In this document: positions 19,135-52,579 of the stretch, in pieces
How positions within the stretch are numbered: position 1 is the stretch's first letter
How the letters are laid out: each line of letters begins with the position of its first letter
IMG/VR virus record: IMGVR_UViG_3300022918_000002
Coordinates: 1 to 53,482 of that record
DNA from: a virus
Taxonomy: Duplodnaviria > Caudoviricetes
Reading direction: 5' to 3' (one strand)
Length of the DNA: 53,482 nucleotides
Translations under genes and position numbers: made by a program
Notes under the pieces: model-generated
What the model saw: only the letters and a program-made list of their open reading frames with translations
Databases searched by the model: none
Told to the model about the DNA's origin: nothing

Positions 19135-20571
19135 TTATTCAGTTTCAATTATTTGTGTTTTTTCTTCATCCTGTATCTTTTTAAACGTAACCGTTGGGTC
19201 ATCGCTTAACGGGTTTTGGTTAATAGATTCCTCTTGTGAAAGTATTGCTTTGCCTCCATTAGCTTTTAGTAATAAGTCTACCATATCGCTTTCTGAACCT
19301 ATTCGGAATAAATCATATTCAGGCGTAACACTTAATTCTTCTCCGCCTCTGCATTCAGGATATATTGCGCATATTGCAGATATAAGAAAGTTAACACGCC
19401 TTTGAATGCCTAAACCGTAAACTCCTTTTTGCATGTTCTTAGCGAATGTGTGAGGTGCTATTAAAAGCCTGTCCATGATTGGCCCCGATAATTGCCCTGT
19501 TATTTTAGCCATAGCATGAGCGGATAAATCAGCTTGCATAGCCATTCCAAATATATCATTCTCATTCCCTTCTAACTCCATTTTTACAGATTCAGGCGCG
19601 CCGGTGGCTTGTACATATTCTAATTTAGCACCGTCCTCTAATTCAAAGACTTTACCTGTTTCGCCTTTAGTAGACATTCCAAGTATCTTCCCGCTTGCTG
19701 CCAATATAGGGCTTCCTGAATAATCGTTTTGATCTGAATGGTTAGACTTTAATGTTTCCCGCCTTTCTATTGATGATTGAGAATTTGCCCATATAGGTTT
19801 ATCTATTTGATAAAACACAACAGGTATCTTTCCGTAAGCTAATTTAACTGAATCCTCTTGCTGTTCTTTTTCCGTAGCTTGTTTATATGGCATCAATATC
19901 CATTCGGTGCTTCTGCTTTTTACATATCTCCTTAACTCTGTGTCTGTGTAAACATCAATATGGTCTGTTTCTTCATAACCCTTTCGTATAGTGTAAGCCC
20001 TTGCAAACGCTATAAGGTCATCGTATTCATCAAATACAGGGATTAGTTTATATCCTGTCTTAGGCGAATACACATTGCATTTTAGTTGAATCTCTTTAGT
20101 GCCATCGGTTTTATCTTTAACCTTTTTATACCATATTTCAGCGCATTCAGTTTCGGAATATAATGATTGCCCTATTTGATTGTTTTTGAAATCTAGTTTC
20201 TCATCTCTCCATATCTTTAACAGCCTATCGTAAGTGTTTTGCTCTGCACCCTCTTTTGGGTTAGCCTTAAGGTTTACTTTGCCAGATGTTAAAAACGCAT
20301 TAGCGGTAACGGTTAAAAGTTCTTGATAAGATAATGCTATCCTGGTTACGGGTACAGTCTTCGTGTATGAATATGATGTTCCATCTTCATTAGCGCGTTG
20401 TAGTTGTATTTCTTTATCCGGTCTAAAGTAAATATCGTTTATCTTATGCTTTTTTGAATCGTATTGTTTCCTGTATAAATCTTCATTGTAATACGAATTG
20501 TGGCACTTATAAATTTCAGGTATAAGAACTACAGGATTATTCAGGTTTGCGATAAAGAAATTAAGATCCAT
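19135..20571 (-). CDS. Portal protein (SPP1 gp6-like)
   Basis: 478 aa after the large terminase; YGKIPVVFY and SNHSDQNDYSGSPIL motifs of SPP1-type portals. Confidence 0.9.
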   Translation of the reverse strand: MDLNFFIANLNNPVVLIPEIYKCHNSYYNEDLYRKQYDSKKHKINDIYFRPDKEIQLQRANEDGTSYSYTKTVPVTRIALSYQELLTVTANAFLTSGKVNLKANPKEGAEQNTYDRLLKIWRDEKLDFKNNQIGQSLYSETECAEIWYKKVKDKTDGTKEIQLKCNVYSPKTGYKLIPVFDEYDDLIAFARAYTIRKGYEETDHIDVYTDTELRRYVKSRSTEWILMPYKQATEKEQQEDSVKLAYGKIPVVFYQIDKPIWANSQSSIERRETLKSNHSDQNDYSGSPILAASGKILGMSTKGETGKVFELEDGAKLEYVQATGAPESVKMELEGNENDIFGMAMQADLSAHAMAKITGQLSGPIMDRLLIAPHTFAKNMQKGVYGLGIQRRVNFLISAICAIYPECRGGEELSVTPEYDLFRIGSESDMVDLLLKANGGKAILSQEESINQNPLSDDPTVTFKKIQDEEKTQIIETE

Positions 20572-33777: not shown

Positions 33778-34887
33778 TTAACCCTTTATGTGGTGAATAA
33801 CCTTATCCAATAACTGATTTACGTCAGAATACATTTTTTTGTTTTTATTGGATTTAAATACATATTTAGTTTTTAAACTCTCTAAATCTGAAAGCAAATC
33901 TTTTACTTTTGCAGCATCGCCTTTGCTTAATTCTTTCTCAATAGCGGCTTTTTCTTCTTCTAAAGATTTCTGTTCAGCTTCTTTTTTATCGCTTAACTCC
34001 TTTTCAGCGGCAATACGCTTTCTTTCGTTTTCCTCAAATTCTTTGCGTTCAGCTTCTTTCCTATCAGCTTCATCTTTCCTTTGTTGTATCTCGTAAGCCC
34101 AATGGTCTTCAGCTCCTTTTTTAATATCTGAAAGTTCATTTTGATAATCAATTTCCTGCTTTTCAATAAGCGCATTGTAGTCTCTTATGAAAACTATATA
34201 AGGCTGTAATTCCTTACTTCTATTTGACCTTATTATGGCTTTTTGTTCGTTTTCTTTCATTAAACGTTCATTTTCTGCCTGTATTCTTTGACGTTCTTCG
34301 TCATCGGCTTTTTGTTTTGCAATTCGCGCTTCTTCTTGTGCTTTTTCGGCTTCTATACGTGCCGCTTCTGCTTGTTCTTTAGCTATTTTATTAGCTTCAA
34401 ATGCCGCTTTTGCGCTTTGTAATTGCCCATTAAATTGTTCTTCTGACATTTCAGATAACGGCAGGAATGAAGTGTCAAATTCATAAGGTAAAAAAGCAGC
34501 TTCACGTTCTTTTTTTAATGATGCTTTTCTTTCGGCTTCAATACGTTCTTCGTGTCGTTCTATTTCACTGAGTTTTTCCTCCATTTGTTCAATTGGAGTA
34601 GTGAGTTTGTTTTTTAATGCATCAACAAATTTACCTGATGCTAAAAAGAATGCTTTTTCTGATTTGTGAACATCAGCTATGCCTGTTCTAACCTTAACAA
34701 GTTTTAGGCGTAATTCTCGCGCGGCTTTAAATCCATCTTTGTTTAATTCCATCGCCACAACATCTGCGTATTGCTGCGTAAATGCCGTTAACTCAATTTT
34801 CTTTGGTTCGAAAGATTTTTCAATACTTAAAGCTTTTGTTTCTTCAATTCCATACTCTTTTGGGTCAATAATGCTTAATTTTTCCAT
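33778..34887 (-). CDS. Coiled-coil protein
   Basis: Likely start MEKLS at 34887, since the track start lies inside the terminator; E/K/A-rich heptads. Confidence 0.7.
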   Translation of the reverse strand: MEKLSIIDPKEYGIEETKALSIEKSFEPKKIELTAFTQQYADVVAMELNKDGFKAARELRLKLVKVRTGIADVHKSEKAFFLASGKFVDALKNKLTTPIEQMEEKLSEIERHEERIEAERKASLKKEREAAFLPYEFDTSFLPLSEMSEEQFNGQLQSAKAAFEANKIAKEQAEAARIEAEKAQEEARIAKQKADDEERQRIQAENERLMKENEQKAIIRSNRSKELQPYIVFIRDYNALIEKQEIDYQNELSDIKKGAEDHWAYEIQQRKDEADRKEAERKEFEENERKRIAAEKELSDKKEAEQKSLEEEKAAIEKELSKGDAAKVKDLLSDLESLKTKYVFKSNKNKKMYSDVNQLLDKVIHHIKG

Positions 34888-34906: not shown

Positions 34907-35009
34907 AAAAAACCCATACTATCCGAATGCTTCTCACTTCATTCTTCAAATACGGGTTTTGTTACTTTTTACGTTGCTATAGTGTGAGAAGGCAACAGAT
35001 ACAAATATA
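34907..35009 (-). ncRNA. Kissing-loop/terminator leader, copy A
   Basis: Promoter TATATTTG 35009-35002; hairpin GTTGC/GCAAC with loop CTTCTCAC; terminator apical loop GTGAGAAG (8-nt complement), then a U-run. Confidence 0.7.
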
Positions 35010-35049
35010 TAAAAGTTTTCCAATTCAATACTAAAAAATCTAAAATAAT

Positions 35050-35565
35050 TTAATTTTGTATTTTACCAATTAACCTATCCTCAATCCAATACCAATCGTT
35101 TAATACTTTAATACGCCCGAAAATAACTAAACACAAAGCATCAGCATTATACAATGTAACCTTTATTTCGGTATAGTTTTCCTGCGCTAAAGCTTTATAC
35201 CTATTTTTCCTTATCTGCTTGCTTTCGCCTTTAATACGCTTAATTAACGCTGTTTGCCAAGTAGCAGGATGAACTTCACAATAAGGCAATCTGTTCGTCT
35301 CTAATAATGTTTTTAGCATAGTATAACCTTTCATCATAGTTGCTATTGCAAACTTCTTACCTGGCGCATCGTCGGCTGCTCCTGCAAAGTGACTTACCTT
35401 TTCTAAAAATACCAATGGATTTTCAAAGTTATCTTTTATGTAAGCAAACTTATCATTTAAATCAATCGAGGCTTTTGGTATTTTAAAGGCTTCAATATTT
35501 TCATTGTCGTAAATCGCAATCCCACCGCTTGCGCCTGGATCTATTCCTATTATTGTGTATTTCAT
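35050..35565 (-). CDS. RuvC-like Holliday junction resolvase
   Basis: IIGIDPGASGGIA, VFLE, VHPATWQ, ADALCL acidic motifs. Confidence 0.85.
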   Translation of the reverse strand: MKYTIIGIDPGASGGIAIYDNENIEAFKIPKASIDLNDKFAYIKDNFENPLVFLEKVSHFAGAADDAPGKKFAIATMMKGYTMLKTLLETNRLPYCEVHPATWQTALIKRIKGESKQIRKNRYKALAQENYTEIKVTLYNADALCLVIFGRIKVLNDWYWIEDRLIGKIQN

Positions 35566-35858
35566 TTCTGCATTATTGTTTCAATCTTTAAATCCATTGC
35601 AAGCCGTAACTCTATTTTAGCACCCCTGCTATTTTTCCAGTTGTTTAACATGTAAATGTAATCGCAGTCTATTAAAGCTTTTAAATCTACTTTCATGTAG
35701 TCATCCCAACTTTCAAAATTACCATGTTCTAAATCTAAAGGGCTTATAGGCTCATATCCTAATTCTATAACTTCCTTTTTTGCCTTTTCAAAGTTATTAA
35801 TGTATTCTTCCCTTTCTAAGCCGCTTATTTGTCCGGCAATGTAGCATTTATGTTTCAT
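35562..35858 (-). CDS. DUF4406-like (nucleoside deoxyribosyltransferase fold) protein
   Basis: YIAGQISG...F...ISP...W..YM...L..CD.IYML..W..SRGAKIE. Confidence 0.85.
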   Translation of the reverse strand: MKHKCYIAGQISGLEREEYINNFEKAKKEVIELGYEPISPLDLEHGNFESWDDYMKVDLKALIDCDYIYMLNNWKNSRGAKIELRLAMDLKIETIMQK

Positions 35859-35860
35859 GA

Positions 35861-36505
35861 TTAAAATATAGTTAATTGTTGTTGATGTTGTTTAAGGCGT
35901 TTTAAAGCGCTTTCATAATAATCTTTATCCAATTCACACGCGGTCAATTCAAAGCCTAAATTATGGCATGCAATAGCAATACTGCCGCTTCCTAAATGCG
36001 TATCTAATATCTTGTCTCCATTTTCAGCGTAATTCATAAGCAACCACTCGTAAAGTTTTACCGGTTTTTGTGTGGGATGGATTCTAACCTCTTTATCTTT
36101 CATATTTCCTTGTAGCATCCCATTCCACATAAAAGTAAATTTATCTACTATAACACCAAATGAATGACTGGCCAATTCACATTTTGAAAATGTACTACTT
36201 TCATTTTGCTTATCCCAAACTATCCTTCCGACATTAGGTATATATTTAGCGTAATAATTGCACCCCCAAATTATTTGATGCTTGCTTACCCTGAATAATT
36301 CATTAAAATAAACCTCATTAGGGACTTCCCAATTTTGTATTTTTTTAGTTTGTCTTCTTACTCCAGATGTGGATATATCATTACCTGTGTAATTGGCTTT
36401 ACCATAATCTTCGAAGTAAGGTGGGTCTGCAATTGCTAAATCGAAATACTTATCTGGATAACGAGCCATTAAATCCATGTTATCCTCGTTTGTTATTTGT
36501 ATCAT
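35861..36505 (-). CDS. DNA amino-methyltransferase (N6A/N4C, beta class), copy 1
   Basis: DPPY catalytic motif first, then HPTQKP and ILDTHLGSGS SAM-binding motif. Confidence 0.93.
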   Translation of the reverse strand: MIQITNEDNMDLMARYPDKYFDLAIADPPYFEDYGKANYTGNDISTSGVRRQTKKIQNWEVPNEVYFNELFRVSKHQIIWGCNYYAKYIPNVGRIVWDKQNESSTFSKCELASHSFGVIVDKFTFMWNGMLQGNMKDKEVRIHPTQKPVKLYEWLLMNYAENGDKILDTHLGSGSIAIACHNLGFELTACELDKDYYESALKRLKQHQQQLTIF

Positions 36506-36509
36506 TTTT

Positions 36510-37412
36510 TTAAGGTTTTGTAAATACTTCTACAGTAGTTGTTTTTTTTACGGGTTTATCTTCTTTTACCGGCTCATAATCTTGCATTACATAAGGTAAT
36601 CTTTCATCGTTTACATTTAATCCAAAGGTTTTAAATTTCTTTCCGCGTGAACGTTGGCATATGACTTCTGAATAATCTCCCATATCTTTTACTATAAGCA
36701 CGGTTTCGCACTTCTGCTGCAATATTGTGCCCAAATGCCCCCTTGCTTTGTCGCTTCCTGGATTTAAGTGTAATACTCCAGTTATGTGGCAATTTGACAA
36801 AGTATTATATTTCATTAACTTTTGTGTAAAAGCTACGCATTCAGTTAAAGAATTAAAATCATTAAGGAAATCAACGTAACCATCAAGTGACACAATGCCT
36901 AATTTATCTTTATAAGGACTTTTAGTAAATAGCCAATCTAAATATGCCATTCGTTCCGATGCACTGTATTCACGTAATTTCACTGCAATGTAATAACTAT
37001 GTATTCCTCCTACTGCCCGCCTTATACGGTCTGCTGTATTCCAACTGTCGTGTTCATCCTGTTCGGTGTCAATATCAATAATGTACTTACCGGCTAAATC
37101 ATGACCTCTTATATCAGGTGCGTATAAATTTGCAGTACCTCCAATTGCACACGCTAAAATCAAACTCTTTGCCCATGTCTTACGGCTTTTCTCCTCCCCT
37201 TTAATCATTGATATGTTTCCAAAAGTTCCAAATCTTAAAGGGTATTGTATTCCGTTGTAAAACCTGTCATCTAATCCTATTGAAATAGCTAATGGTGGCC
37301 TTTTGGGTTTTGTGTTTAAATCAACTGTGCTTTTTTTATGTACATCAGCATAATCTAATTCTTTAGGATCATCTTTTAATGCTAAATCCGGTGTTATTTT
37401 TTGTATTGCCAT
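36510..37412 (-). CDS. RecA-fold P-loop ATPase, putative replicative helicase
   Basis: Walker A variant GEEKSRKT, IDTEQ, Walker B IVSLDG, VLHLN...KARGHLG. Confidence 0.75.
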   Translation of the reverse strand: MAIQKITPDLALKDDPKELDYADVHKKSTVDLNTKPKRPPLAISIGLDDRFYNGIQYPLRFGTFGNISMIKGEEKSRKTWAKSLILACAIGGTANLYAPDIRGHDLAGKYIIDIDTEQDEHDSWNTADRIRRAVGGIHSYYIAVKLREYSASERMAYLDWLFTKSPYKDKLGIVSLDGYVDFLNDFNSLTECVAFTQKLMKYNTLSNCHITGVLHLNPGSDKARGHLGTILQQKCETVLIVKDMGDYSEVICQRSRGKKFKTFGLNVNDERLPYVMQDYEPVKEDKPVKKTTTVEVFTKP

Positions 37413-37414
37413 AA

Positions 37415-38056
37415 TTAAAACATTGTTAATTGCTGTTGATGAATTTTAATGCGTTTACAAGCGGCATCGAAATAATCTTTGTCTAACTCACATGCAGTTA
37501 AATCAAACCCTAAATTATGGCACGCTATAGCTATTGATCCACTACCCAAATGCGTATCTAAAATTAGCTGATTAGGTTTGGCGTAATTCATGAGCAACCA
37601 TTCGTAAAGCTTAACAGGCTTTTGTGTTGGGTGTATTCTTTCCTTATACAATCCATCTTTTGCATTAGCTCCAACCCATCCAACCTTAAATGATCTTAAT
37701 GCACCTCCTTTAGAACTAAAAGCTAATTCTCCATCAGAAAAATCGTTTTCTCCTGTCCCCTTGTCCCAATATATCCAAGATGATATTGGAGGTAAAAACG
37801 GAGTCATGTGATTTGCTCCCCAAACAATCTGGTTTTTTGAAACCCTAAATAATTCATTAAAATAATTATTGTCAGGAGTTTTTAAGTCCCAATCAGAATT
37901 GCCTCTATTTATTTTTTTCTTTCCATTTCCTAAGGTCATTTTATTAGCCCCAATCCCATACGGAGGGTCTACTATAGCTAAGTCGAAATATTTATCAGGA
38001 TAACGAGCCATCAAAGCCATGTTATCTTCATTAGTAATTTTAATTTTATCTACCAT
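37415..38056 (-). CDS. DNA amino-methyltransferase (N6A/N4C, beta class), copy 2
   Basis: DPPY, HPTQKP and ILDTHLGSGS; likely start MVDKI at 38056. Confidence 0.93.
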   Translation of the reverse strand: MVDKIKITNEDNMALMARYPDKYFDLAIVDPPYGIGANKMTLGNGKKKINRGNSDWDLKTPDNNYFNELFRVSKNQIVWGANHMTPFLPPISSWIYWDKGTGENDFSDGELAFSSKGGALRSFKVGWVGANAKDGLYKERIHPTQKPVKLYEWLLMNYAKPNQLILDTHLGSGSIAIACHNLGFDLTACELDKDYFDAACKRIKIHQQQLTMF

Positions 38057-38057
38057 T

Positions 38058-38654
38058 TTAAATTTCATTATCTGTTAATGTTTTACATCCTTTATCCTCG
38101 TAATCTGCATAATGTTCACAGCAATGTAAATCATGCTCTTTATTTTCATATCTAACTAATAATTCAGATAAAAAGTTATTAAGTTTTTCCGTTATAGCTT
38201 CATTGCTAAACATATCTTCTTTCATGAATTTAGCAAAGCTGTCAGTAATTACAGGGTCTTTTGCCTTATCGCTATTTTCTTTGTAAACCTCCCTAAGTGT
38301 TTCTATACTTTGGGGCTTAACGGTATCTTTAAACTCGTAGTGATTAAAAAAATCATTAAGCCTAAACATATCCATATTTAATTTAAAACGCTCGTAATGC
38401 CCTTTTAAAGGCTCTTTAAGTATATTTTGTATTTCCTTTTCTGCCGTAATGTTTGAGCCTTCATAATGCAGTAAAAGCTGATTATAAACATACATAGTCA
38501 TTTTACAAAAATGGTGGTTACGCGCTAATCTTTCCTCTTTCACAAAATTTATCCAGTCTACAACTTCGTTAAAAGCATTAGCATCGGTTTGGTTAGGTTT
38601 GTTGCCTTTTGCTATTGTGTATGCAAGCCGGTTCATTGATTTTTCTATATTCAT
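38058..38654 (-). CDS. Hypothetical protein
   Basis: 198 aa ORF in the replication operon. Confidence 0.6.
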   Translation of the reverse strand: MNIEKSMNRLAYTIAKGNKPNQTDANAFNEVVDWINFVKEERLARNHHFCKMTMYVYNQLLLHYEGSNITAEKEIQNILKEPLKGHYERFKLNMDMFRLNDFFNHYEFKDTVKPQSIETLREVYKENSDKAKDPVITDSFAKFMKEDMFSNEAITEKLNNFLSELLVRYENKEHDLHCCEHYADYEDKGCKTLTDNEI

Positions 38655-39385
38655 AGATTTGATTCTTTTTTATTTTCATAAGCTTCTATTGATTTAAATA
38701 TTGAATATGGTATTATAGGGCATACGGCGTTTCCTAAAGCGTGTAAAGCCAATTGTGTGGAAAACCCATAATTTGATTCACACAATGGGGGCAAGGTTTT
38801 CCGTTGAATAGCATTGATAACCCTATTTGTTTCCCATTCTCTACTCGCCTGGTAATTGCAGGTGTTTTGTATAATGTTCCTCGATCCCTGTTGTCCGATG
38901 CCATTGGGGTAGGCAATAACGTAAAGCCGCTCTCTTTCATGAGGTAATCCAAACGCTTCTGCCGTGAAACATTCCCATTCTGCATTGTACCCGATTTCGG
39001 AAAGGTCAAATAAGACTTTTTCAAATCCTTTTTTAAGGAGGTTTGGGCTATTTTCAATAACGACCCATTCAGGTCTAATTTCGTAAATAGCACGGTCGTA
39101 ATGTTCCCATAATCCGCTTCGTTCTCCCACAATTCCAACTGACTTAAAATTTGCTGCTGAAATATCTTGGCATGGGAATCCTCCTGTAATAATTTTAACT
39201 TTACCATTGTATTCTTTAAAATCAGTTGTTTTTATATCTCCATACTGTTTGCATTCAGGAAAATGTTTTTTTGTTATTGAATTGCAATAATCGCTTATTT
39301 CAACGCTTGCTACATTTTTCCAACCTAATTCGTGTGCTGCTATCTGAAAGCCGCCAATACCGTTAAATAAAGCGTAGTGCTTCAT
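38651..39385 (-). CDS. C5-cytosine DNA methyltransferase, large (alpha) polypeptide
   Basis: Motif I LFNGIGG, IV GGFPCQ, VI ENS, VIII HERER, X LGNAV; no motif IX in this frame. Confidence 0.92.
   Translation of the reverse strand: MKHYALFNGIGGFQIAAHELGWKNVASVEISDYCNSITKKHFPECKQYGDIKTTDFKEYNGKVKIITGGFPCQDISAANFKSVGIVGERSGLWEHYDRAIYEIRPEWVVIENSPNLLKKGFEKVLFDLSEIGYNAEWECFTAEAFGLPHERERLYVIAYPNGIGQQGSRNIIQNTCNYQASREWETNRVINAIQRKTLPPLCESNYGFSTQLALHALGNAVCPIIPYSIFKSIEAYENKKESNL
38734..39207 (-). CDS. Nested alternative-frame beta polypeptide of the C5 methyltransferase (true start probably an internal Met)
   Basis: Same strand, different frame; LLPTPMASD and C-terminal VNQIMGFPHNW match motif IX. 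Confidence 0.7.
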   Translation of the reverse strand: MVKLKLLQEDSHAKIFQQQILSQLELWENEADYGNITTVLFTKLDLNGSLLKIAQTSLKKDLKKSYLTFPKSGTMQNGNVSRQKRLDYLMKESGFTLLPTPMASDNRDRGTLYKTPAITRRVENGKQIGLSMLFNGKPCPHCVNQIMGFPHNWLYTL

Positions 39386-39389
39386 AATT

Positions 39390-40154
39390 CTAAGTTTTAG
39401 ATGCCAATATCCTTGTTATGTTTTTTCGTAGGTTTGAAAGGCTTAAAACCGTTTTCTTCCAAAACAAATCATCATCGTTATTTAAGTAATCATAAGCAGC
39501 AACTAAGTTTTCAATACTTACACCATCGTTTTCTACCATAAGCCGTATTTCTGTAACGTAGCTTTTGTAAACTGCCTTTTCCTGGTGGTTAGTTGGTAGC
39601 TGTTTTTCTTTTAGATTTTTAATAAATACTTTTCTAAACTTATCAGCCATTACAAAGTACATTAATTCCTTTTCTGTAACTTCAATTTCGGTGTCTTTGT
39701 ATTTTAAATTATTACCTGAAATTGAAATATCGGACATCTTTATTTTTAATAAAGATATATATGGTTTATTATCTGGTATAGGTTGGCGATTTCTGTCTGT
39801 TCCATTTGCTAATTCTCGCTCCTCCATTTGCGGTTTTTCGCTAATGGTTGATTCTATTGGGATAGAGTACCATTTTGTACGGTCATAACCCTTTTTATTA
39901 TGGCTGCTAACTAATATTAATTTAGCCTTATGTAAATTTATTAAACAGGTCTTTATTTGGCTTTCAGTAAGCCATGTAAATTGCTCTGTAAAGGCTTTTA
40001 TACTATTAAAAGTCCAGTACTGCCCATCATGGAAATTAACCTTATTAGATCGATTAAAATCAACCCAATAATCAATGTTAGATAATATAATAGCGGCATC
40101 AGTTCCAACTAACTTAGCTATTTCAGGCTCGAATGTCATTTTAACTTTACTCAT
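39390..40154 (-). CDS. Replication initiator-like protein (N-terminal winged helix)
   Basis: AKLVGTDAAIIL..I.YW...DGQYWTFNS...F.W...YDRTKWY pattern of phage replication initiators. Confidence 0.75.
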   Translation of the reverse strand: MSKVKMTFEPEIAKLVGTDAAIILSNIDYWVDFNRSNKVNFHDGQYWTFNSIKAFTEQFTWLTESQIKTCLINLHKAKLILVSSHNKKGYDRTKWYSIPIESTISEKPQMEERELANGTDRNRQPIPDNKPYISLLKIKMSDISISGNNLKYKDTEIEVTEKELMYFVMADKFRKVFIKNLKEKQLPTNHQEKAVYKSYVTEIRLMVENDGVSIENLVAAYDYLNNDDDLFWKKTVLSLSNLRKNITRILASKT

Positions 40155-40161
40155 GATGCAG

Positions 40162-40764
40162 TTAATCTAAACCAAAATATAATTCCATGCTTAAATCTTC
40201 TGTATCGGCTTGTTTAAGAGCATCAATAAGCTTTCCTTTAGACTCTTTACACAAACCATATCCGTAAGAACGATAACGGTATGACCTTTCGAAAGTAGAT
40301 ACAGGAAATATCAACCCATCATCAATAACAAGCTTTTTATTTGTGAGGTCTTCAAAGAACGTATTAACAAAAATATTGTAATAAGTGATACCCTCTTTTT
40401 CGGAACGCTTTGCATAAGCATATTTGGTAATTGAAAAATCAAACCTTGATATAATTTCAACAGGTGTTCCATAAGTATGCCTTATAAGTTCGACCCTAAT
40501 GTTTGTAGTTTTATTTTTATAGCATTTTACATTCCTGTTTTCATAAGAAAAAAAATAATTATCATCCTTTTCAAAAACATTAATCGCTTCTATTAAATCT
40601 TTTTCAGATTGAAAAAACACATCAATATCTTTAATCTTTTGATTATTAAAAATGTTTTTGAAACATCCACCGGCAATAAAACCTTTATGCCCCTCCATGT
40701 AGTAATCCAAGAATCTTACTTTGTTAAATGATTCTTTTGGTCGTTCAATAAATTTAGTTTCCAT
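40162..40764 (-). CDS. Nucleotidyltransferase-fold protein (CCA-adding/poly(A) polymerase head-like)
   Basis: FIAGGCF...KDIDVF (GG..DxD), VELI, FDFSI. Confidence 0.65.
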   Translation of the reverse strand: METKFIERPKESFNKVRFLDYYMEGHKGFIAGGCFKNIFNNQKIKDIDVFFQSEKDLIEAINVFEKDDNYFFSYENRNVKCYKNKTTNIRVELIRHTYGTPVEIISRFDFSITKYAYAKRSEKEGITYYNIFVNTFFEDLTNKKLVIDDGLIFPVSTFERSYRYRSYGYGLCKESKGKLIDALKQADTEDLSMELYFGLD

Positions 40765-40768
40765 AAAT

Positions 40769-40884
40769 AAAAAACAAAAGCCGAAAACGTCAAGGGATCC
40801 ACTCCTATCGGTTTACGGCTTGTTTAGGTTAAAGTGCAACCTATAATGTCTTAATGTAGGTGGATCTTCTACGAGACAAATATA
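40769..40884 (-). ncRNA. Kissing-loop/terminator leader, copy B
   Basis: Promoter TATATTTG 40884-40877; hairpin GTAG/CTAC with loop GATCCAC; extra hairpin TAGGTT/AACCTA; terminator AAGCCG/CGGCTT with apical GTGGATC, then a U-rich tail. Confidence 0.7.
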
Positions 40885-40901
40885 CAAATATTATTTAATT
40901 G

Positions 40902-41408
40902 CTAAAACGCTTTACCATTTTCTTTAATACGATTTTCAATTTTGTGGTCAGCACGATTAGCATTGTACTCTAACTTTTCCATTACAGCCCCGCCAATATC
41001 ATAACCCCAACGACCACAATAATCCATAATTCTAATTACTGCATCAGCCATTTCTACTTCTGCCATTGGTCGGTTAGGCAAATGGTCATCCATAAGGTTT
41101 TTGCGTTCTCCCTCCATAGCTTCTGATAATTCGCTATGAATTAAACATATCATTTCGGCTTTGTTACGCTCTTTTAATTCTCCTGTTATAATATTTGTGT
41201 GCCAACCAGCTAATAGTGAATCGTTGTAGCAAATATCACGCATATCGTTTATTTCTTTCGATTTTATAAGATTGTCAATATATTTCTTTGCTATTGAAAG
41301 CTTATCAAACTTTTTATTTTCATCTTCTAAATCACTGTAAATTTTAAATTGTTCTACGTCTGTTAAGAAAATTATTTCAAAACCTTTATAGTCTTCTATT
41401 TTTGCCAT
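40902..41408 (-). CDS. MazG-like nucleotide pyrophosphohydrolase
   Basis: LIHSELSEAMEGERK...EVEMADAVIRIMD (ExxE...ExxD). Confidence 0.8.
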   Translation of the reverse strand: MAKIEDYKGFEIIFLTDVEQFKIYSDLEDENKKFDKLSIAKKYIDNLIKSKEINDMRDICYNDSLLAGWHTNIITGELKERNKAEMICLIHSELSEAMEGERKNLMDDHLPNRPMAEVEMADAVIRIMDYCGRWGYDIGGAVMEKLEYNANRADHKIENRIKENGKAF

Positions 41409-42015
41409 TGTTTTTAATTTGTAAAGTTAAAATTTAGTGTGCCAGTTTCTTTACTCGCATTTTTCTGCTGTTTTAAGCGCATTTCTTTGCTTATCCATAC
41501 AACTATGTACTTTGTCTTGTTATTAGGTCGCTTAGTGGCTAAAAATGGGTTTACAGGGTGTTTAAATATTAATTCCTGCTTTTATAATTGTTGTAAAGCA
41601 TTACCCCATTCGCTGCCGTTGCCTGTAATTTTACCACACGCCATTTTATAGGCTTGTTTAAGGTCTTCTACTGTAAATGAAATAAACCTTTTGCTTACCC
41701 ATTTCTTTGAGAACTCGTAAGGGGTTAGGTTATTCATAAAATGGAATCCAGTTACCGAAAGTTGATTTAACCCCTCTACCAATCTCCAAGTGAGCGCATT
41801 TATTTAACAAGCATAGTTTTTTTTCGCCTTTATCATTAAGAATATAGAAAGCTAAATTATGCGGTTCTCTTGCTTCAGTAGATGAAATAACTTCATACTT
41901 TTTATTAAAAGTAAAGTTATCTGCCGGATATGGTAACATTACATATTTAAGTTTTTTCATTGCTATTATTTTTAAAATTTATCCCAGTTTTCTTGTACCC
42001 ATTCATCACAAATAA

Positions 42016-42050
42016 TTAAAGCGGGTTTACTATACTTCAACCCGCTTTAA
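42016..42050. terminator. Perfect 12-bp inverted repeat (terminator or processing hairpin)
   Basis: TTAAAGCGGGTT-N11-AACCCGCTTTAA. Confidence 0.6.
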
Positions 42051-42152
42051 CTTGGTAGCCGCCATCCCTGACGCAATCGTGCCCTAAGTTTCAAGTATTT
42101 TTACGATTGTTGTTTTTTATAAAACACGATACTACCTGAATGAATTTAGTTT

Positions 42153-42905
42153 CTACATGATTATCGGGGGGGTTAATATTTTTTCAGCTTTTAAAACGTT
42201 AGCGGTTAATAATTCTTTATCTTCCTCCGTTGGCTTAAAGTTATGTATAACCTTTGACGGCCATTTGCTATGCGATGGTATATACGCTAATTCGCTTATA
42301 TGCTTTTCAGTAATAAATCTACCTTGCCACGGCTCAATTCCTATTCTTTCTAAAAAGTTAGTATCTTCTATTTCTTCACGTATTTGTATCAGTTGGTCGT
42401 AAGATGGTGTAAATGCCATTATCTCGCAATATTCAACGCCAAGCAATATACAGTTAGAAACAACCTGCCAAAATATATCAGGAAACAAGCCTTTAAAAAC
42501 ATCAATATTTATTACACCCTCGTTAAGCTCTAACAATGCTTTAGAAAGGGTGTAATACTTCTTAGGTTGATAGCATTTCATTTCTCCCGCTGTATTAACT
42601 TTAGTAAAGTCAGGCGAGCCACTCCAAAAAGGATATTTAGGATGGGTTAACGTTGTTTTTGAGCATAAAGAATACTCTATACCCATATCATTTTCAAAAG
42701 CCCATGCCTCCATTACTTTGCCCCATGTCATATCTTGGGAATACGCACCAGTATCTAACGAACGCCCTAAACACCTTTCGGCTCTTTTTTCTTCAATGTA
42801 AGTTAAGGCAGGCGCGCCAAATCCTTTTCCTGATTTGTCTTTAGTCATTAACTTGAATATTTCGCTTGATGTAAAACGTCCTATTCTTTGCTCTATACTA
42901 ATCAT
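42153..42905 (-). CDS. YqaJ/lambda-exonuclease-like recombination nuclease
   Basis: RIGRFTSSE, MTWGKVME, SGSPD...EMKC, FWQ motifs. Confidence 0.85.
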   Translation of the reverse strand: MISIEQRIGRFTSSEIFKLMTKDKSGKGFGAPALTYIEEKRAERCLGRSLDTGAYSQDMTWGKVMEAWAFENDMGIEYSLCSKTTLTHPKYPFWSGSPDFTKVNTAGEMKCYQPKKYYTLSKALLELNEGVINIDVFKGLFPDIFWQVVSNCILLGVEYCEIMAFTPSYDQLIQIREEIEDTNFLERIGIEPWQGRFITEKHISELAYIPSHSKWPSKVIHNFKPTEEDKELLTANVLKAEKILTPPIIM

Positions 42906-43401
42906 TGGTTTTAATTTTTGAGTTTAGAAAGTTAATTACTTTGTTGTATGAGTTATATTCCTGGTTATTTATAACTCTTTCAACACCCGTTAATTCTTCT
43001 GGATTTAATTCTGATTTAACTTGGTCTAATAGGGTTTTAATATTACCTAAATGATCTATACCGCCTTTTAATACCCTTAGTATAGCTAATCCATTTGCCT
43101 CTCCAATACGCCCCTTGTTTTCTACAATGCCTATTTCAACTTCTAAGTTAACCCATGCAGAAGTTTCTTTTGTGCCGGTGTACATATTCAACTTCTTACA
43201 GTTGGTCGCATTAAGTATCATCGGTTTTACATTCTCTCCATTTGAATACGTTTTTTCATGAAAGTAAGCAACGTTCTTCAATTCCTTTTTTTGTAATTGA
43301 ACATCTTTTTGTTCAACACGCTGTATCGTTAATATAACATTTGAATCTATGTCCCATGCAGCCATAAAATCAGATTTAAATGCGTTTCTCCAATTTCCCA
43401 T
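42898..43401 (-). CDS. Putative ssDNA-binding/annealing partner of the exonuclease
   Basis: Likely start MGNWR at 43401; KPMILNATN motif; adjacent to the exonuclease gene. Confidence 0.5.
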   Translation of the reverse strand: MGNWRNAFKSDFMAAWDIDSNVILTIQRVEQKDVQLQKKELKNVAYFHEKTYSNGENVKPMILNATNCKKLNMYTGTKETSAWVNLEVEIGIVENKGRIGEANGLAILRVLKGGIDHLGNIKTLLDQVKSELNPEELTGVERVINNQEYNSYNKVINFLNSKIKTND

Positions 43402-43403
43402 AA

Positions 43404-43952
43404 TTATTTTATTAAATGTTTCCAATGTGTATTATGTAGTATCCTGCCTATTGTTGATGTGTCAACATTATATTGTTCAGCAATAGACTTAATTGTTTTT
43501 GATTTGCCTATGGCGCGTATCTCTAAAACTTGTATTTCAGTTAATTTAGCGGCTGCATTTTTAGTTCCTTTGCATGATTTCATTAAATTATTTGAATGAG
43601 CATGATGGCTATTTTCTTTAGGTGTTACCCATTCGAGTTCAGTAACTCTGTTGTCATTCTTTATTCCTAATTTGTGATTAACTTCTGATTTTTTTTCAGG
43701 GTTTGGAATAAAAGCAATTGCAATTAACCTATGCAGTAAAAAACTATTACCACCATTCTTTTTGCTCAACCTTACTTGTAAATAACCATCTTTAGTTGTG
43801 CATGGTTTTAGAGGTCGTTCTTTGTAAAAATGATACTTATTATTTGGGGTTATAAATCTCCAATAACTAAGAGATTTAATATTACCTAAATTAGACACGG
43901 CATACAAACCCTCATAACCCACTACGTCTTTCCATTCTTCTATAATATCCAT
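43404..43952 (-). CDS. NUMOD4-HNH homing endonuclease
   Basis: EEWKDVVGYEGLYAVSNLG (NUMOD4), HRLIA..F.PNP...VNH....K.DNRV.ELEW....N; likely start MDIIE at 43952. Confidence 0.92.
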   Translation of the reverse strand: MDIIEEWKDVVGYEGLYAVSNLGNIKSLSYWRFITPNNKYHFYKERPLKPCTTKDGYLQVRLSKKNGGNSFLLHRLIAIAFIPNPEKKSEVNHKLGIKNDNRVTELEWVTPKENSHHAHSNNLMKSCKGTKNAAAKLTEIQVLEIRAIGKSKTIKSIAEQYNVDTSTIGRILHNTHWKHLIK

Positions 43953-43955
43953 AAT

Positions 43956-44069
43956 AAAAATAAAAAGCCTACCATACTCCAAACGCATCTCAACTCGTTC
44001 TTTGTATAATAGGCTATAATGTCTTTAATGTTGCTTTAATTGAGATGCTGCAACCTTATAGCAAATATA
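43956..44069 (-). ncRNA. Kissing-loop/terminator leader, copy C
   Basis: Promoter TATATTTG 44069-44062; hairpin GTTGC/GCAAC with loop GCATCTCAA; terminator AGCCTATTATAC/GTATGGTAGGCT with apical TTGAGATGC (9-nt complement). Confidence 0.72.
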
Positions 44070-44109
44070 CGGATAACTAATTATATTATAGATTAATAGG
44101 CTATTAATG

Positions 44110-44355
44110 TTATTTATTTTCTACTATTATAAAATCTTTTACCTCTAATCCTGATATTTTAGATAGATACAATATATCTGAAACTACTACCGGTGCATTA
44201 AAGTTTTTATAGTTCCTTAGAGTAGCATCACTTAATCCCATATCTTCGGCAAGTTCATACTGCCTTAATTTATCTTTTTCGGGATATTTTTCATTTACGG
44301 TATCGATAACCTTTTCTATGTCAATCTTAACCCCTGTTCTTTTCTTTTCGCTCAT
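44110..44355 (-). CDS. Cro/XRE-like HTH transcriptional regulator
   Basis: LRQYELAEDMGLSDATLRNYK. Confidence 0.8.
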   Translation of the reverse strand: MSEKKRTGVKIDIEKVIDTVNEKYPEKDKLRQYELAEDMGLSDATLRNYKNFNAPVVVSDILYLSKISGLEVKDFIIVENK

Positions 44356-46688
44356 TTTCGTTTTTTCTTTTTAGGTTGTAAATGTGTCTTTTTATTTCGG
44401 GTTTTTCCTGTGCCGTAGTTTTTGAAACTCTGAACTACAGGGTCAGATACTTTAGTTTCTGATTCAAGTATTTTCTTTTCTCTTAGAGCAATAGTGCCCG
44501 ACGAAACGTAAATGTTATTTTGGCACAAATGTTCCTTTTCATAATTTCCTTTACTGTTCATAATCTTATTTTATAATCTATAACCTGTATAATCGCATTT
44601 ACTGCAATTAACATTATATTGAGGTGGATTGCTTAATAAAATATTACCGTTTGTATCCTGTAATTCCGAATTACATTTAAGGCAAGATATACCGTTGTTT
44701 TTAGGATATGTTTGGTTTAAAATAAACATATCTTTGGTTTGTTTGTTATTTTCGTCTAATGTTTTCATAATAAATGTATTTTTTCGTAGTTAGGATTTTG
44801 CCCGTAATCTGTAAATAAATTACTTAAAGGCAGCGAGTAATTTGCATCGGGGTGGGTTTGGGTTATTTCTATGGTTATCATTTTATTTTATATTCAGGAG
44901 TTTTCTTTTGCTTGTCATTATGCATACTCTTAGCCTCTTTCCAAGTAATATATCTATTTTTGTTATTGTCCATCCTATTTATTGCAGCATCAAATCGATT
45001 ACTTGCAAGCTCTTTGTAATTGTTGACTTCATTTTCAACCCAGTCTTGTTTTAATTCTTGGAGTGTATCATAGTCCCAAAAAATAAAACTATCGGTAACA
45101 GTTGAGAAAACAGCGTATTTGCCGTTAGGTTGTTTGAAAAACACATGCGCCATAACTTTAAGGTTTATAATTTTTAATGAAATTAACTACAGCAACATAG
45201 GCGGCTTGTATTTTCGTTTCGCCTTTATAATCGCATAACGCAGGAGTATTAAAACCATCGTCTAAACATATCTGTGCGCGATGCCTGCATAACTGAAACT
45301 TATAACCCAAAGATTCTATTTTCTCTATTACAGGCATTAACCGTGACCATGATTTATGATAATTTGCTTTATAGAACTGAACATTTCCGCTTTCAGTCAT
45401 AAATCCACCAAAATGCTCTGAGAATTTAAAACCTACAAACTCCGCGATAATCTTATTACTTTCTTCTATATTCATTTTGCCTTATTTTTTAGCACCCCGC
45501 AGGGAATGATGTAACTTCTTTAGCGTTTACGATTGTTGTTAAACCACCGTTTTCATTTCTGTATGTACGTTTCACGTATTGGTATTTTTTGCCTCCTGAG
45601 GTTCCGTAACCGTTAGCGTCAAAACCTTGTGTGGTTGATTCTTCGCAATTAATAGATATAATAATAGATTGTCCGTTAGGTAAAATAGCTTTAATATTGC
45701 CGCTTGTTTTAAAAGAATAAAGTCCGAATAACGATAATACCATTATTGATAAGATTATTTTTTTCATGGTTATAATTTTACTGAATTTAATTTATTGTTT
45801 GCATCAACAACTGATTGCCTGTTTTCAATAGATGGGTTTTTAAGATATGCTTTTATTGCCGCGCCTCTTGATTGTAATTCTTGGTGTAATGTTTTCATGA
45901 TTTATATTTTTAAGATTACTCTACCATTCTAAGAGCGTTAAGTATTCTTTCTTTGGGTTTTGAGCCTAATTTATCCGGCCCATCATTTATTTCATATACA
46001 ACGGCATATTCTCCCATAGCAGGCATTGAAACAACTTTTTTATGTATAGGTTCTAAAATATTAACTAAGGCTTTCGCTTCTAATGTTAATCCATCTTGGT
46101 AAGATTCAATGCCACAATGTCCAAGAGCACAATGGCACTCATTATCTACGGGGCTTTTTAAATTAGTTGTACACCATTTATTTTCCGGTATGGCTTCAAA
46201 CTTTTTAATAAAGTACTCTTTGTCAAATTTAGTTTCCATGATTATTCAGTTTTTAATTTTATCCAGTTGTATTCTATTTGTTGTTCTACAGATAACAAGT
46301 GCCATTCAATTGCATAACCATTTTGGCGCATATAATCAGAGAAAATAAATGGATAATTATTATCTGTAATTTCTCCATCTATTACTTTACGGTAAAATGA
46401 TTCGTAAAAAACAATATAATCACTATCCTTGTGAAAAGAAATTAAACCTATATTTCTATTTTTAAATCCATCTATAAAATATGAAGATATATTTAATAGT
46501 TTAGCCACCTCAATAGCATCTTCATCGGTAATTGATGAAAGGGGCTTAAGTAGTAATTTTGTATAATCATCAATACTGCCATCTAATAAATAAGTGTCTG
46601 TACTTTCGTATTCATCATTGAAAGTCAAAACTTGTTGTTTCCAATAATTTGCAAAAAATCTCTCTTTGTTTTCAAATGTGTTTTCCAT
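44352..46688 (-). other. Second array of small early/accessory ORFs, including a CxxC-CxxC protein (44571..44768) and a signal-peptide protein (45489..45767)
   Basis: Co-oriented short ORFs downstream of the 46720 promoter. Confidence 0.75.
45916..46239 (-). CDS. Hypothetical CHCALGHCG protein, paralog 2
   Basis: Clear paralog of 30850..31191. Confidence 0.8.
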   Translation of the reverse strand: METKFDKEYFIKKFEAIPENKWCTTNLKSPVDNECHCALGHCGIESYQDGLTLEAKALVNILEPIHKKVVSMPAMGEYAVVYEINDGPDKLGSKPKERILNALRMVE

Positions 46689-46719
46689 TGTTATAATTAT
46701 TTATTGTTTTTCTATACCG

Positions 46720-46767
46720 CAAACCTAACATATTTTAGCTTACTAACCTAATATATTTTATGTTTAT
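46720..46767 (-). promoter_or_regulatory. Promoter overlapped by tandem 14-bp direct repeats (same motif as at 31.7 kb)
   Basis: TAGGTTTG at 46727-46720; AACCTAACATATTT at 46722 and AACCTAATATATTT at 46745 (23-bp period). Confidence 0.7.
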
Positions 46768-46780
46768 TTTTATTTAAAGC

Positions 46781-46866
46781 AAAAAAAATACCGCCTACTT
46801 TCGTAAACGGTACTAAAAACAATAGAAAATAAATATAGAATTAAAAACAATAATGTCGCAAATATA
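46781..46866 (-). ncRNA. Candidate sRNA of about 75 nt (promoter to terminator, no ORF)
   Basis: TATATTTG at 46866-46859; U-rich body; terminator TACCGTTTAC-GAAA-GTAGGCGGTA followed by a U-run. Confidence 0.5.
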
Positions 46867-46891
46867 GTAAACATTAGCGACAAACAATTTA

Positions 46892-47380
46892 TTACTTATT
46901 CCTTAGCTCATTAAACATATTAGTGACATTAGAGGCATGTTTATTCATCGTTCGGTACATAAGTAACATTGCTACCATAAACACCAATACAACGCCTACG
47001 ATTAAGTATAAAACCCATGTAGAGTTAAACTCCTCCGTCTTGGTTTTTTCCTTTTCCTTTGTAGTCTGTAAAAGTTGGCTATTATATTTAGTTATAACAT
47101 CGATTAAAGCCGCGTTACAGTCCGCCTGTTGGATTATTCCCTGCTTATCGTATATTACCTTAAGTTGAGTGCCGTTCGTGCCTTGTACGTATATTGTGGT
47201 GTCCCTGTAAATTATGTTTGCCGGTGGAATGTAAGTCGCAATACCACCATCTCGCTTCTCTGTAGTTTCTATTTGCTCTTTAAAGTCGGTATCGGTTTTA
47301 GTCTTGGATGCTTGCTTTTGTATATCACAGGATGTTAACGACAATAATGTCATGAACATAATTAATAATCGGATTTTCAT
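46892..47380 (-). CDS. Unimolecular spanin-like lipoprotein
   Basis: N-terminal lipobox LLSLTSC plus C-terminal TM segment WVLYLIVGVVLVFMVAMLLMY; own promoter box TAACTTTG at 47410-47403. Confidence 0.7.
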   Translation of the reverse strand: MKIRLLIMFMTLLSLTSCDIQKQASKTKTDTDFKEQIETTEKRDGGIATYIPPANIIYRDTTIYVQGTNGTQLKVIYDKQGIIQQADCNAALIDVITKYNSQLLQTTKEKEKTKTEEFNSTWVLYLIVGVVLVFMVAMLLMYRTMNKHASNVTNMFNELRNK

Positions 47381-47479
47381 TTATAGGGTTTTTAAGTTTA
47401 AACAAAGTTAGTCAATTACCTAAACAAAAGATTACCTACATGGAATCATGTTATTTTTAGCACGGTGTCGTGTATAAAC

Positions 47480-47585
47480 AAAAAAACCGTGCATCTCTAC
47501 ACGGTTTACCAACCCCCAAAAACTTAATGCATGAAAAACACTACTTATTTTTTACTTAAAAAGAATTTTAAGCTTTACAAATATA
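47480..47585 (-). ncRNA. Candidate sRNA of about 95 nt (promoter to terminator)
   Basis: TATATTTG at 47585-47578; terminator AAACCGTG-TAGAGATG-CACGGTTT followed by a U-run. Confidence 0.5.
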
Positions 47586-47625
47586 TAAATATTTACCTGC
47601 TTATTGCGTAATAATGTTTTTTATG

Positions 47626-47719
47626 TATATTTGTCGATGTAGAGTCGTCGCTACAATTAAAAACATTTTAAAATTTCCGCACATGAAGAGCCGACGACCT
47701 CTGATTGTGCGGATTTTTT
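47626..47719 (+). ncRNA. Kissing-loop/terminator leader, copy D
   Basis: TATATTTG 47626-47633; hairpin TGTAG-AGTCGTCG-CTACA; terminator TCCGCACA/TGTGCGGA with apical loop CCGACGAC, then T6. Confidence 0.75.
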
Positions 47720-47725
47720 GCATTT

Positions 47726-47803
47726 ATGAAATCAGCAAGTGAGAATTATGCCGAGATATTAAAATCTCCTGAATGGCATAAAAAGAGATTTAAGTTGAAA
47801 TAA
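47726..47803 (+). pseudogene. 25-codon ORF resembling the N-terminus of an HNH nuclease
   Basis: MKSASENYAEILKSPEWHKKRFKLK; Y...L.SPEW..KR is typical of phage HNH N-termini, and the catalytic part is absent. Confidence 0.5.
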
Positions 47804-52511: not shown

Positions 52512-52579
52512 TTATAAAATGGCATCCACCTGACCAAATAATCACTATGAATGCGGCGATGCAAATATAGCAGAAACGT

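Follow-up and report, generated by a model that had tools for sequence, protein, structure and literature searches.

What is the role of four short hairpin leaders in a flavobacterial phage genome, each placed between a promoter-like box and an operon, and each carrying two loops that are complementary to one another but to no other copy? The genome is IMG/VR virus record IMGVR_UViG_3300022918_000002, and the window is this whole contig of 53,482 bases (34% G+C), a tailed-phage genome of the Flavobacteriaceae kind. In the four leaders, termed elements A to D, a small 5′ hairpin (H1) is followed by a linker and a longer, terminator-like hairpin (H2), and the two hairpin loops can pair with each other in a loop–loop "kiss". 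A first-pass annotation, made from the letters alone, had described these leaders as a family of attenuators, and the loop strings, boxes, H1 stems and shared spacer that it quoted are all found at the positions that it gave. The elements are laid out as follows.

Element A, 34907..35009, minus strand: box TATATTTG at 35009-35002; H1 at 34996-34973, with stem GTTGC/GCAAC and a 14-nucleotide loop; linker at 34972-34957; terminator hairpin H2 at 34956-34913; U-run at 34912-34907; kiss of CTTCTCAC (34991-34984) with GTGAGAAG (34937-34930); ATG at 34887.
Element B, 40769..40884, minus strand: box TATATTTG at 40884-40877; H1 at 40872-40856, with stem GTAG/CTAC and a 9-nucleotide loop; linker of 34 nucleotides that includes an extra small hairpin; H2 at 40820-40779, with a bulged basal stem; U-run at 40779-40769; kiss of GATCCAC (40866-40860) with GTGGATC (40802-40796); ATG at 40764.
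Element C, 43956..44069, minus strand: box TATATTTG at 44069-44062; H1 at 44054-44030, with stem GTTGC/GCAAC and a 15-nucleotide loop; linker at 44029-44015; H2 at 44014-43967; U-run starting at 43966; kiss of GCATCTCAA (44048-44040) with TTGAGATGC (43993-43985); ATG at 43952.
Element D, 47626..47719, plus strand: box TATATTTG at 47626-47633; H1 at 47638-47655, with stem TGTAG/CTACA (core GTAG/CTAC) and an 8-nucleotide loop; linker at 47656-47675; H2 at 47676-47713; U-run at 47714-47719; kiss of GTCGTCG (47644-47650) with CGACGAC (47692-47698); ATG of an open reading frame (ORF) of 25 amino acids at 47727.

The order of parts from 5′ to 3′ is the same in all four: box, H1, A-rich linker, H2, U-run and ATG. 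H1 starts 4–7 nucleotides past the box and consists of a 4–5 base pair stem with a loop of 8–15 nucleotides, and the A-rich linker that follows is 15–34 nucleotides long. H2 has a GC-rich basal stem of 8–11 base pairs, a small purine-rich internal loop and a weak upper stem of 3–5 base pairs, which is closed by an apical loop of 8–12 nucleotides that pairs with the H1 loop over 7–9 base pairs. A run of 5–9 U directly follows the GC-rich H2 stem, as in a predicted intrinsic terminator, and the ATG lies 10–25 nucleotides beyond the start of this run in a U/A-rich stretch. In addition, B and C have the spacer AAGACATTATAG in common. When folded with RNAfold, all four sequences keep H1 and a terminator-like H2, with the complement of the H1 loop unpaired within the H2 apical loop.

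The box TATATTTG fits the −7 promoter element of Bacteroidota, TAnnTTTG. In Flavobacterium johnsoniae the G of this element lies at −5 (PMC6847099), and H1 is therefore predicted to start at +1 to +4 of the A–D transcripts. The window contains 18 copies of the box where 8.66 ± 3.14 are expected, and none of 100 shuffles reaches 18. A further motif, GACATTAT, occurs 7 times against 2.67 expected, and with 3 of 100 shuffles reaching 7 it is too weak for use. No other terminator is found between the upstream stop codon and the box, so that H2 should also end the upstream unit.

The same layout could in principle serve a quite different purpose, namely that of a 5′ stabiliser and translation platform for messenger RNAs without Shine-Dalgarno sequences, in which a folded cap would protect against ribonucleases, an unstructured U/A-rich stretch would precede the AUG, and no terminator function would be involved. 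Start regions in Bacteroidota have no Shine-Dalgarno sequence and tend to be unpaired and A-rich (PMC6847099), and the AUG 10–25 nucleotides past the hairpin, in its U/A-rich surroundings, would suit such a platform. However, a GC-rich stem directly before 5–9 U has the canonical form of an intrinsic terminator, the mean F. johnsoniae leader (33 nucleotides; PMC6847099) is about a third as long as these leaders, and a kiss is unnecessary for this role. We consider the platform barely credible.

Whether the complementary loops exceed chance was judged with a descriptor that calls for a box, a perfect H1 within 16 nucleotides, and the reverse complement of at least 7 loop nucleotides (at least 3 of them G or C) inside a folded hairpin ending at a T-run. 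Anchored to the promoter in this way, the descriptor finds exactly A–D among the 99 TAnnTTTG boxes of the window. Across 126 sources (1,636,911 bases, 2212 boxes) it returns 15 elements with true reverse complements, compared to none when the partner is replaced by a parallel complement, 1 for a reversed word and 2 for a direct repeat. A larger set of 280 sources (2.93 megabases, 4047 boxes) yields 43 elements, 28 of them distinct. One of the latter, contig L243 at 2349, was discarded as a probable false match because it lies in a coding region, lacks a linker and folds at only −8.4 kcal/mol, which leaves 27 elements. A looser descriptor lacking the promoter anchor produced many AT-rich false matches, and the anchored version was used instead.

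The loop letters differ completely among A–D and vary among the 27 elements; complementarity alone is kept. The longest Watson-Crick runs between cognate loops of A, B, C and D are 8, 7, 9 and 7 pairs, compared to 2–5 between non-cognate loops, and duplex energies are −9.8 to −14.8 kcal/mol for cognate kisses and +0.5 to −7.6 kcal/mol for non-cognate ones. Beyond the cognate pair, the codes of A, C and D have no occurrence elsewhere in the 53.5-kilobase genome, and the 7-mer of B occurs at two further places, both inside ORFs. Folding energies, which leave the pseudoknot out of account, are −0.7 to −4.6 kcal/mol for H1 alone and −0.9 to −1.3 kcal/mol for the upper H2 hairpin alone, while the H2 basal stem without its upper stem closes a loop of 22–28 nucleotides at −8.2 to −11.6 kcal/mol. 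Because H1 and the upper part of H2 are both marginal on their own, the kiss would make up a major part of the fold.

Every one of the types A–D has a homologue elsewhere in which the loop pairing is kept through compensatory changes in the kiss or in a stem, and for three of the four types the homologue is in cultured phages. Compared with 50,697 phage records, the window has no DNA matches apart from short stretches between genes of Flavobacterium, Polaribacter and Cellulophaga phages, and these stretches are the kissing-loop elements themselves. The D type is carried by 34 Flavobacterium phage records (hattifnatt, hemulen, mumin and others), by 4 Polaribacter phage records and by IMG/VR contigs. 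A pattern that fixes only the D-type H1 stem and spacer matches 16 viral contigs of IMG/VR, and in 15 of the 16 the complement stands at the same offset, in three loop variants: GTCGTCG/CGACGAC, GTCGCCG/CGGCGAC and GTCGTAG/CTACGAC. The sixteenth contig is an unrelated match. The D-type pattern was also the one used on bacterial hosts, where in 185,579 bacterial species genomes it matches 10 contigs, none of which has the complement, a promoter or a terminator.

In an alignment of 12 D-type sequences, the kiss consists of 7 pairs with 100% of cells paired; 4 of the 7 pairs differ between sequences at both positions, and no pair has a one-sided change. Both-side changes are also seen in 7 of the 8 pairs of the terminator stem. 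The covariation score is 0.347; shuffles give 0.110, with none of 500 reaching the observed value, and slid controls give 0.024–0.065. The strand of the element is fixed by the G-U pairs in the terminator stem and by the U-run.

The other types tell the same story from fewer sequences. For A, the homologue in Cellulophaga phage phi18:3 (BLAST, 76% identity over 108 nucleotides) has the kiss CTTCTGAC/GTCAGAAG in place of CTTCTCAC/GTGAGAAG, a compensatory exchange of C>G with G>C. For B, F. columnare phage FCL-2 and the FCOV phages (9 records by BLAST) have CATCCAC/GTGGATG in place of GATCCAC/GTGGATC, a compensatory exchange of G>C with C>G. The uncultured contig L250 carries a homologue of C with an identical code and an H1 stem compensated to GTTAC/GTAAC; in the 50,697 phage records no homologue of C is found, and the lone match, at E=0.3, is chance. 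Moreover, hattifnatt9-1 has three elements with codes of their own, the third of which differs from its mumin counterpart by a double compensatory change; mumin, too, carries three elements. Stem-plus-spacer patterns for A and C give 11 viral matches, none of them real, and the pattern for B gives none. The exact 16-mer spacer of C is found in at least 115 stretches of viral contigs, mostly coding, and none of those inspected has the architecture.

Taken from these sequence comparisons, the covariation demonstrates a loop–loop helix of 7–9 base pairs and hence a real RNA element, carried by phages of Flavobacterium, Cellulophaga and Polaribacter and by many uncultured contigs. The descriptor and the homologues bear out the proposal of different yet complementary loops in promoter-proximal leaders.

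Conservation is not confined to paired positions. In the D-type alignment the linker (columns 17-38) is better conserved than the terminator stem, and at several A and T positions it does not vary between Flavobacterium and Polaribacter phages, whose stems have diverged through compensatory changes. Tandem G-A/A-G is frequent in the internal loops of H2. Together, the conserved linker and the tandem G-A internal loops hint at tertiary contacts or a binding site.

The notion of a "family of four" needs to be qualified. A covariance model of the D type (R1) recovers D at 93 bits and misses A, B and C at E≤10, its E-values being rough, and the subtypes could not be placed in one register by MAFFT. 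The four elements are therefore not recent duplicates, and kissless promoter-proximal terminators, described below, are also present in the genome. What stands is the shared architecture, of which A–D are, judged by layout and covariation, four subtypes. Since the subtypes are independent lineages that drift by compensatory change, their private codes need no special selection. The architecture is also regular in its dimensions. Box and H1 lie a median of 5 nucleotides apart in the 27 elements, and H1 start and U-run are separated by a median of 84 nucleotides (range 74–98).

What, then, would such a leader do? The most economical reading of sequence and fold remains the attenuator of the first-pass annotation, here specified as a cis-acting, promoter-proximal attenuator that doses and insulates the unit behind it, with the kiss assisting the terminator. 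We favour this reading tentatively and would put the case for it a little short of evenly balanced. Each element would be the 5′ leader of a transcript from a host-type promoter (sigma-A, TAnnTTTG), with the RNA 5′ end at H1 or within a few bases of it, followed by the linker and then by the intrinsic terminator H2. Most transcripts, both from the element's own promoter and from the upstream operon, would stop at the U-run, giving an RNA of roughly 80–105 nucleotides, and the fraction that reads through would set a low, insulated dose of the HNH cassette (C) or of accessory and replication genes (A, B and D). The kiss would lock the marginal H1 and upper H2, and would thereby turn a basal stem with a floppy 22–28-nucleotide loop into a compact and efficient terminator. 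Whatever occupies H1 or opens the kiss would raise read-through. There are precedents: in T4, the endonuclease mobE is limited by a terminator at the start of its gene (PMC2790892), and in corrinoid riboswitches a kissing loop stabilises the hairpin that it engages (PMC10327014).

Several points weigh against the attenuator. The promoter, 5′ end, termination and read-through of every element are predictions. In the only experimentally studied RNA of the same topology, the guanidine-IV riboswitch, the kiss causes read-through, since the full terminator stem shortens the linker (PMC7736828, PMC11611296). In the subtypes with linkers of 9–11 nucleotides, which are the hattifnatt 9372 type and the L215 elements, there may be no room for both a straight coaxial kiss and a fully closed basal stem. 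If the kiss were a constitutive enhancer of termination, a simpler strong terminator would do as well; the design thus hints at a regulated step, and the conservation of the linker exceeds what a passive tether needs. Finally, A, B and D precede no endonuclease in this genome.

Topology and linker geometry give weight to the opposite arrangement, in which the element would be a built-in anti-terminator with the logic of guanidine-IV and no ligand. An early kiss, held by a taut linker, would block closure of the basal stem; RNAs that form it soon enough would read through, and the terminator would act only when H1 is unavailable. The topology is that of guanidine-IV, in which the kiss gives read-through and competes for space with the growing terminator stem (PMC7736828, PMC11611296). 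In the elements considered here, the spacing from H1 end to kiss partner hardly varies (median 36 nucleotides, and 32–38 in 23 of the 27), although the descriptor allowed 8–90. The free linker is shorter where the helices are longer (Spearman −0.89, n=15 representatives), and by this arithmetic on lengths the long-helix subtypes leave 9–11 nucleotides to bridge about 35 stacked layers. The D type, however, retains a linker of 20–22 nucleotides after full closure, which is probably enough, and a constitutive kiss that always beat its terminator would render the terminator pointless. An RNA that reads through from upstream also holds H1, and the kiss cannot distinguish the two sources. A built-in anti-terminator is a serious but unlikely explanation, and the attenuator remains the preferred reading.

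Nearly all genes of the window run leftward, from about 47.4 kilobases, where early, replication and recombination genes lie, down to large late-type ORFs, and a short rightward block begins at 47.7 kilobases; there are four transfer RNA (tRNA) genes. The first gene behind A encodes a 369-amino-acid protein rich in glutamate and lysine (E/K), and its E/K/A-rich composition is consistent, by eye, with the "coiled-coil" label that it had been given. B is followed first by a nucleotidyltransferase (NTase)-like gene and then by replication and methylase genes, and C is followed by an HNH endonuclease and then by an exonuclease module; the labels NTase/replication and HNH/exonuclease are confirmed for these two operons. 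Within the operon behind B are two paralogous N6_N4 DNA methylase genes, at 35861-36505 and 37415-38068 (both minus strand), and a third methylase gene at 38651-39385. Behind D come the ORF of 25 amino acids (47727-47803, plus strand) and then small genes. The peptide of this ORF resembles the first 17 residues of a 190-amino-acid HNH-motif protein in contig L186, with 10 of 17 residues identical (E=3e-4 in a tiny search space), and the L186 protein itself sits behind a kissing-loop leader. From this resemblance, D may be a leader left over from a lost or truncated endonuclease gene.

A sister phage contig, L120, has about 80% nucleotide identity to the window and shows how the elements come and go. 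C and its HNH gene are absent from L120 at the same junction, and the C cassette is an insertion relative to its kin. At the place of B (4940-5000), L120 has the box TATATTTG, 7 nucleotides, a plain hairpin AAACCCCA...TGGGGTTT, TATT and an ORF of 52 amino acids; a promoter-proximal hairpin is kept there, without a kiss. The region of A has no counterpart in L120. Of 43 loci that surround a homologue of B's NTase gene, none carries an element. One of these loci is in L120, where the protein is 94% identical, and an element therefore does not necessarily accompany the NTase gene. In other contigs, the first ORFs behind 20 elements comprise 9 NUMOD4/HNH_3 endonucleases, 1 GIY-YIG endonuclease, 2 helicases, 1 HTH_36 replication protein and 7 without a family; the endonuclease share (10/20) is biased upwards, the loci having partly been fetched by an HNH query and the D pattern. 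The survey and the comparison with L120 suggest that the elements mark the starts of self-contained units, which are often, and not always, endonuclease cassettes.

An ORF of at least 40 amino acids starts within 55 nucleotides of the U-run in 26 of 29 elements checked, which is the layout of a leader and not of a free-standing gene. This bears on the possibility that the terminated RNA is itself the product, a compact small RNA that would act in trans through its linker or open loops, either on nascent copies of the same leader (self-titration, superinfection immunity) or as a protein sponge. In favour of such a product, the promoter boxes are strong consensus ones, with H1 at the extreme 5′ end and the terminator at the 3′ end; linker positions do not vary between Flavobacterium and Polaribacter phages, although the stems do; and the codes are orthogonal. 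Set against these features and beside the leader layout, the intramolecular kiss occupies both loops, and no code has a second target in the genome, save two chance 7-mers for B. We regard a trans-acting product as very improbable, and the suggestion of trans action in immunity or copy sensing finds no footing in the window, where the codes of A, C and D are confined to their cognate pairs and the B 7-mer recurs only at the two sites inside ORFs.

The kissing-loop elements are not the only terminators close to a promoter in this phage. Nine of the 18 exact TATATTTG boxes have a hairpin and T-run within 125 nucleotides, and all nine lie in inter-ORF gaps. They are A–D and five units without an apical kiss, all on the minus strand:

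Unit E, 47585-47480, minus strand: box TATATTTG at 47585-47578, without H1 or kiss.
Unit F, 46866-46781, minus strand: box TATATTTG, then directly CGACATTAT, which resembles the B/C spacer.
tRNA leader, 50910-50773, minus strand: box TATATTTG, a leader of about 105 nucleotides, and a terminator CCTCC...GGAGG followed by 7 T.
Unit G, 19126-19021, minus strand: between an ORF of 478 amino acids (19135-20571) and the next late gene.
Unit at 52569, minus strand: box, hairpin and T-run.

The terminator of unit E lies about 70 nucleotides past its box (AAACCGTG...CACGGTTT and 7 T, 47507-47480), and a second box, TAACTTTG, stands at 47410 ahead of an ATG at 47380. A match to FopS (RF04319) in this unit, at 47473-47541 on the minus strand, is weak, at 25.3 bits where the cut-off is 56 (E=2.9); it is taken to be chance and lies outside A–D. 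Unit F has a strong terminator, TACCG...CGGTA with 8 T, about 45 nucleotides on, no H1 or kiss, and an ATG about 90 nucleotides further. The tRNA leader is directly upstream of a cluster of four tRNA genes (50757-50451). Unit G combines its box with a CTATG/CATAG hairpin (loop TAAAGATG), a linker that is A-rich and includes AAAGAC, and a terminator; the 7 loop letters AAAGATG find their complement, CATCTTT, in the 5′ arm of this terminator instead of in its apical loop. This pairing may be an antiterminator-like variant, or chance, as it contains only 2 G/C.

That half of the exact boxes are followed by a terminator would also be expected if the units were gated by a factor. Antitermination by lambda N and Q is a known case of such gating, and Rom binds the RNA I–RNA II kisses of ColE1. 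The phage would keep nearly all of its consensus promoters behind terminators, and the gate would be an antitermination factor of phage or host, or a shape-specific protein that binds the kiss whatever its letters, and a protein that reads shape would explain why loop letters are free while geometry is kept. No antiterminator, NusG-like, sigma or RNA-binding family is recognised among 47 window ORFs compared with PHROGs or Pfam, which are mostly ORFans, and the elements move with cassettes between unrelated phages, which fits poorly with a phage-specific factor. Gating by a factor is a decidedly doubtful explanation. A bolder version joins it to the trans-acting RNA: the elements would be orthogonal, letter-programmable switches, in which the terminated RNA, bearing both halves of its private code, accumulates, competes for the H1 loop of nascent copies and so flips termination in trans, or a single Rom-like protein reading their shape controls all of them. 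This we hold to be speculative and improbable. If its trans form were true, each unit would have a timer titrated by its own product, and a resident phage could mis-set the units of a superinfecting relative.

The elements would represent a putative, uncatalogued and widespread class of regulatory RNA in Flavobacteriaceae phages. The class would bear on the dosage and insulation, within phage operons, of mobile cassettes such as homing endonuclease and accessory genes. With cognate duplexes at −10 to −15 kcal/mol and non-cognate ones at +0.5 to −7.6 kcal/mol, the codes are orthogonal, and the elements could provide ready-made parts with which to tune termination in Bacteroidota. Several of the carriers are cultured phages, among them Cellulophaga phage phi18:3, Flavobacterium phages hattifnatt and mumin and Polaribacter phage P12002L, and the mechanism is therefore directly testable.

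How do these elements compare with known systems? The first-pass annotation recognised no named family, and none has come to light. Rfam 15, in which the guanidine-IV family is included, has no family that matches A–D at gathering score or at E≤10. No description of the element was found in the literature; in a catalogue of more than 10,000 candidate phage RNAs, the main text contains no "kissing", "Bacteroid-" or "Flavobacter-", and the supplements, which list motifs, may hold it (PMC10690425).

A lambdoid late unit, in which the promoter PR′, the 6S RNA and the terminator tR′ are released by Q, is similar in that a constitutive promoter yields a short terminated RNA ahead of the genes. Unlike that unit, which heads one late operon, the present ones are many per genome and head early, accessory and endonuclease genes; no Q-like binding site is recognised, nor any Q-like gene among the 47 ORFs scanned, which are mostly ORFans, and the kiss has no counterpart there. 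The phage RNAs P4 CI and P1 c4, to which the elements had been likened, also use RNA–RNA pairing in a phage leader to cause premature termination or a block. These are processed, trans-acting RNAs with repeated targets, whereas here the sole partner of each loop lies about 36 nucleotides away. As no second targets exist, the elements are not P4 CI- or P1 c4-like, and with no consensus antisense promoter either, the analogy is weak and guanidine-IV is closer. The antisense attenuators of pT181 and pIP501 resemble the elements in that a loop–loop kiss with the nascent leader decides whether a terminator acts. In those plasmids the second loop is on a countertranscript from the opposite strand, whereas here both loops are in one RNA. 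No opposite-strand TAHHTTTG box reads across any of the four elements, and two such boxes nearby point away; since no consensus antisense promoter reads across them, the elements are not of the pT181 type.

The T4 mobE endonuclease cassette begins with an intrinsic terminator that limits the transcript level (PMC2790892), and a comparable endonuclease start (HNH or GIY-YIG) is found behind C and most D-type relatives, and not behind A or B. In mobE, however, the gene lacks its own promoter and the terminator, a plain hairpin within the coding region, pairs with no other loop. The corrinoid riboswitch offers a further parallel in its L5-L13 kissing loop, which stabilises the expression-platform hairpin whose loop it engages and so decides termination (PMC10327014); this kiss is ligand-dependent, has 4–5 pairs and a conserved L5, and its P13 is not itself the terminator.

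The closest system is guanidine-IV (mepA or GGAM-1). According to PMC7736828 and PMC11611296, it has a 5′ hairpin, a linker and a hairpin that is, or extends into, the terminator, with terminal loops that pair, and its decision is made at transcription termination, as is predicted for the elements here. Its own features are a short ligand-dependent kiss, a highly conserved loop pocket and a place in bacterial guanidine-export messenger RNAs. The phage elements differ in having 7–9 Watson-Crick pairs whose letters change with each subtype, no visible conserved pocket, and a place at the head of phage units. The genes downstream are not of the guanidine type (sugE, mepA), being endonucleases, helicases and replication proteins in relatives. 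With no loop pocket, no guanidine genes and no Rfam match, the elements are not members of guanidine-IV. They suggest instead that the layout in which a hairpin loop kisses a terminator loop, of which one small-molecule riboswitch is the known case, has a ligand-free counterpart whose pairing letters are freely exchangeable.

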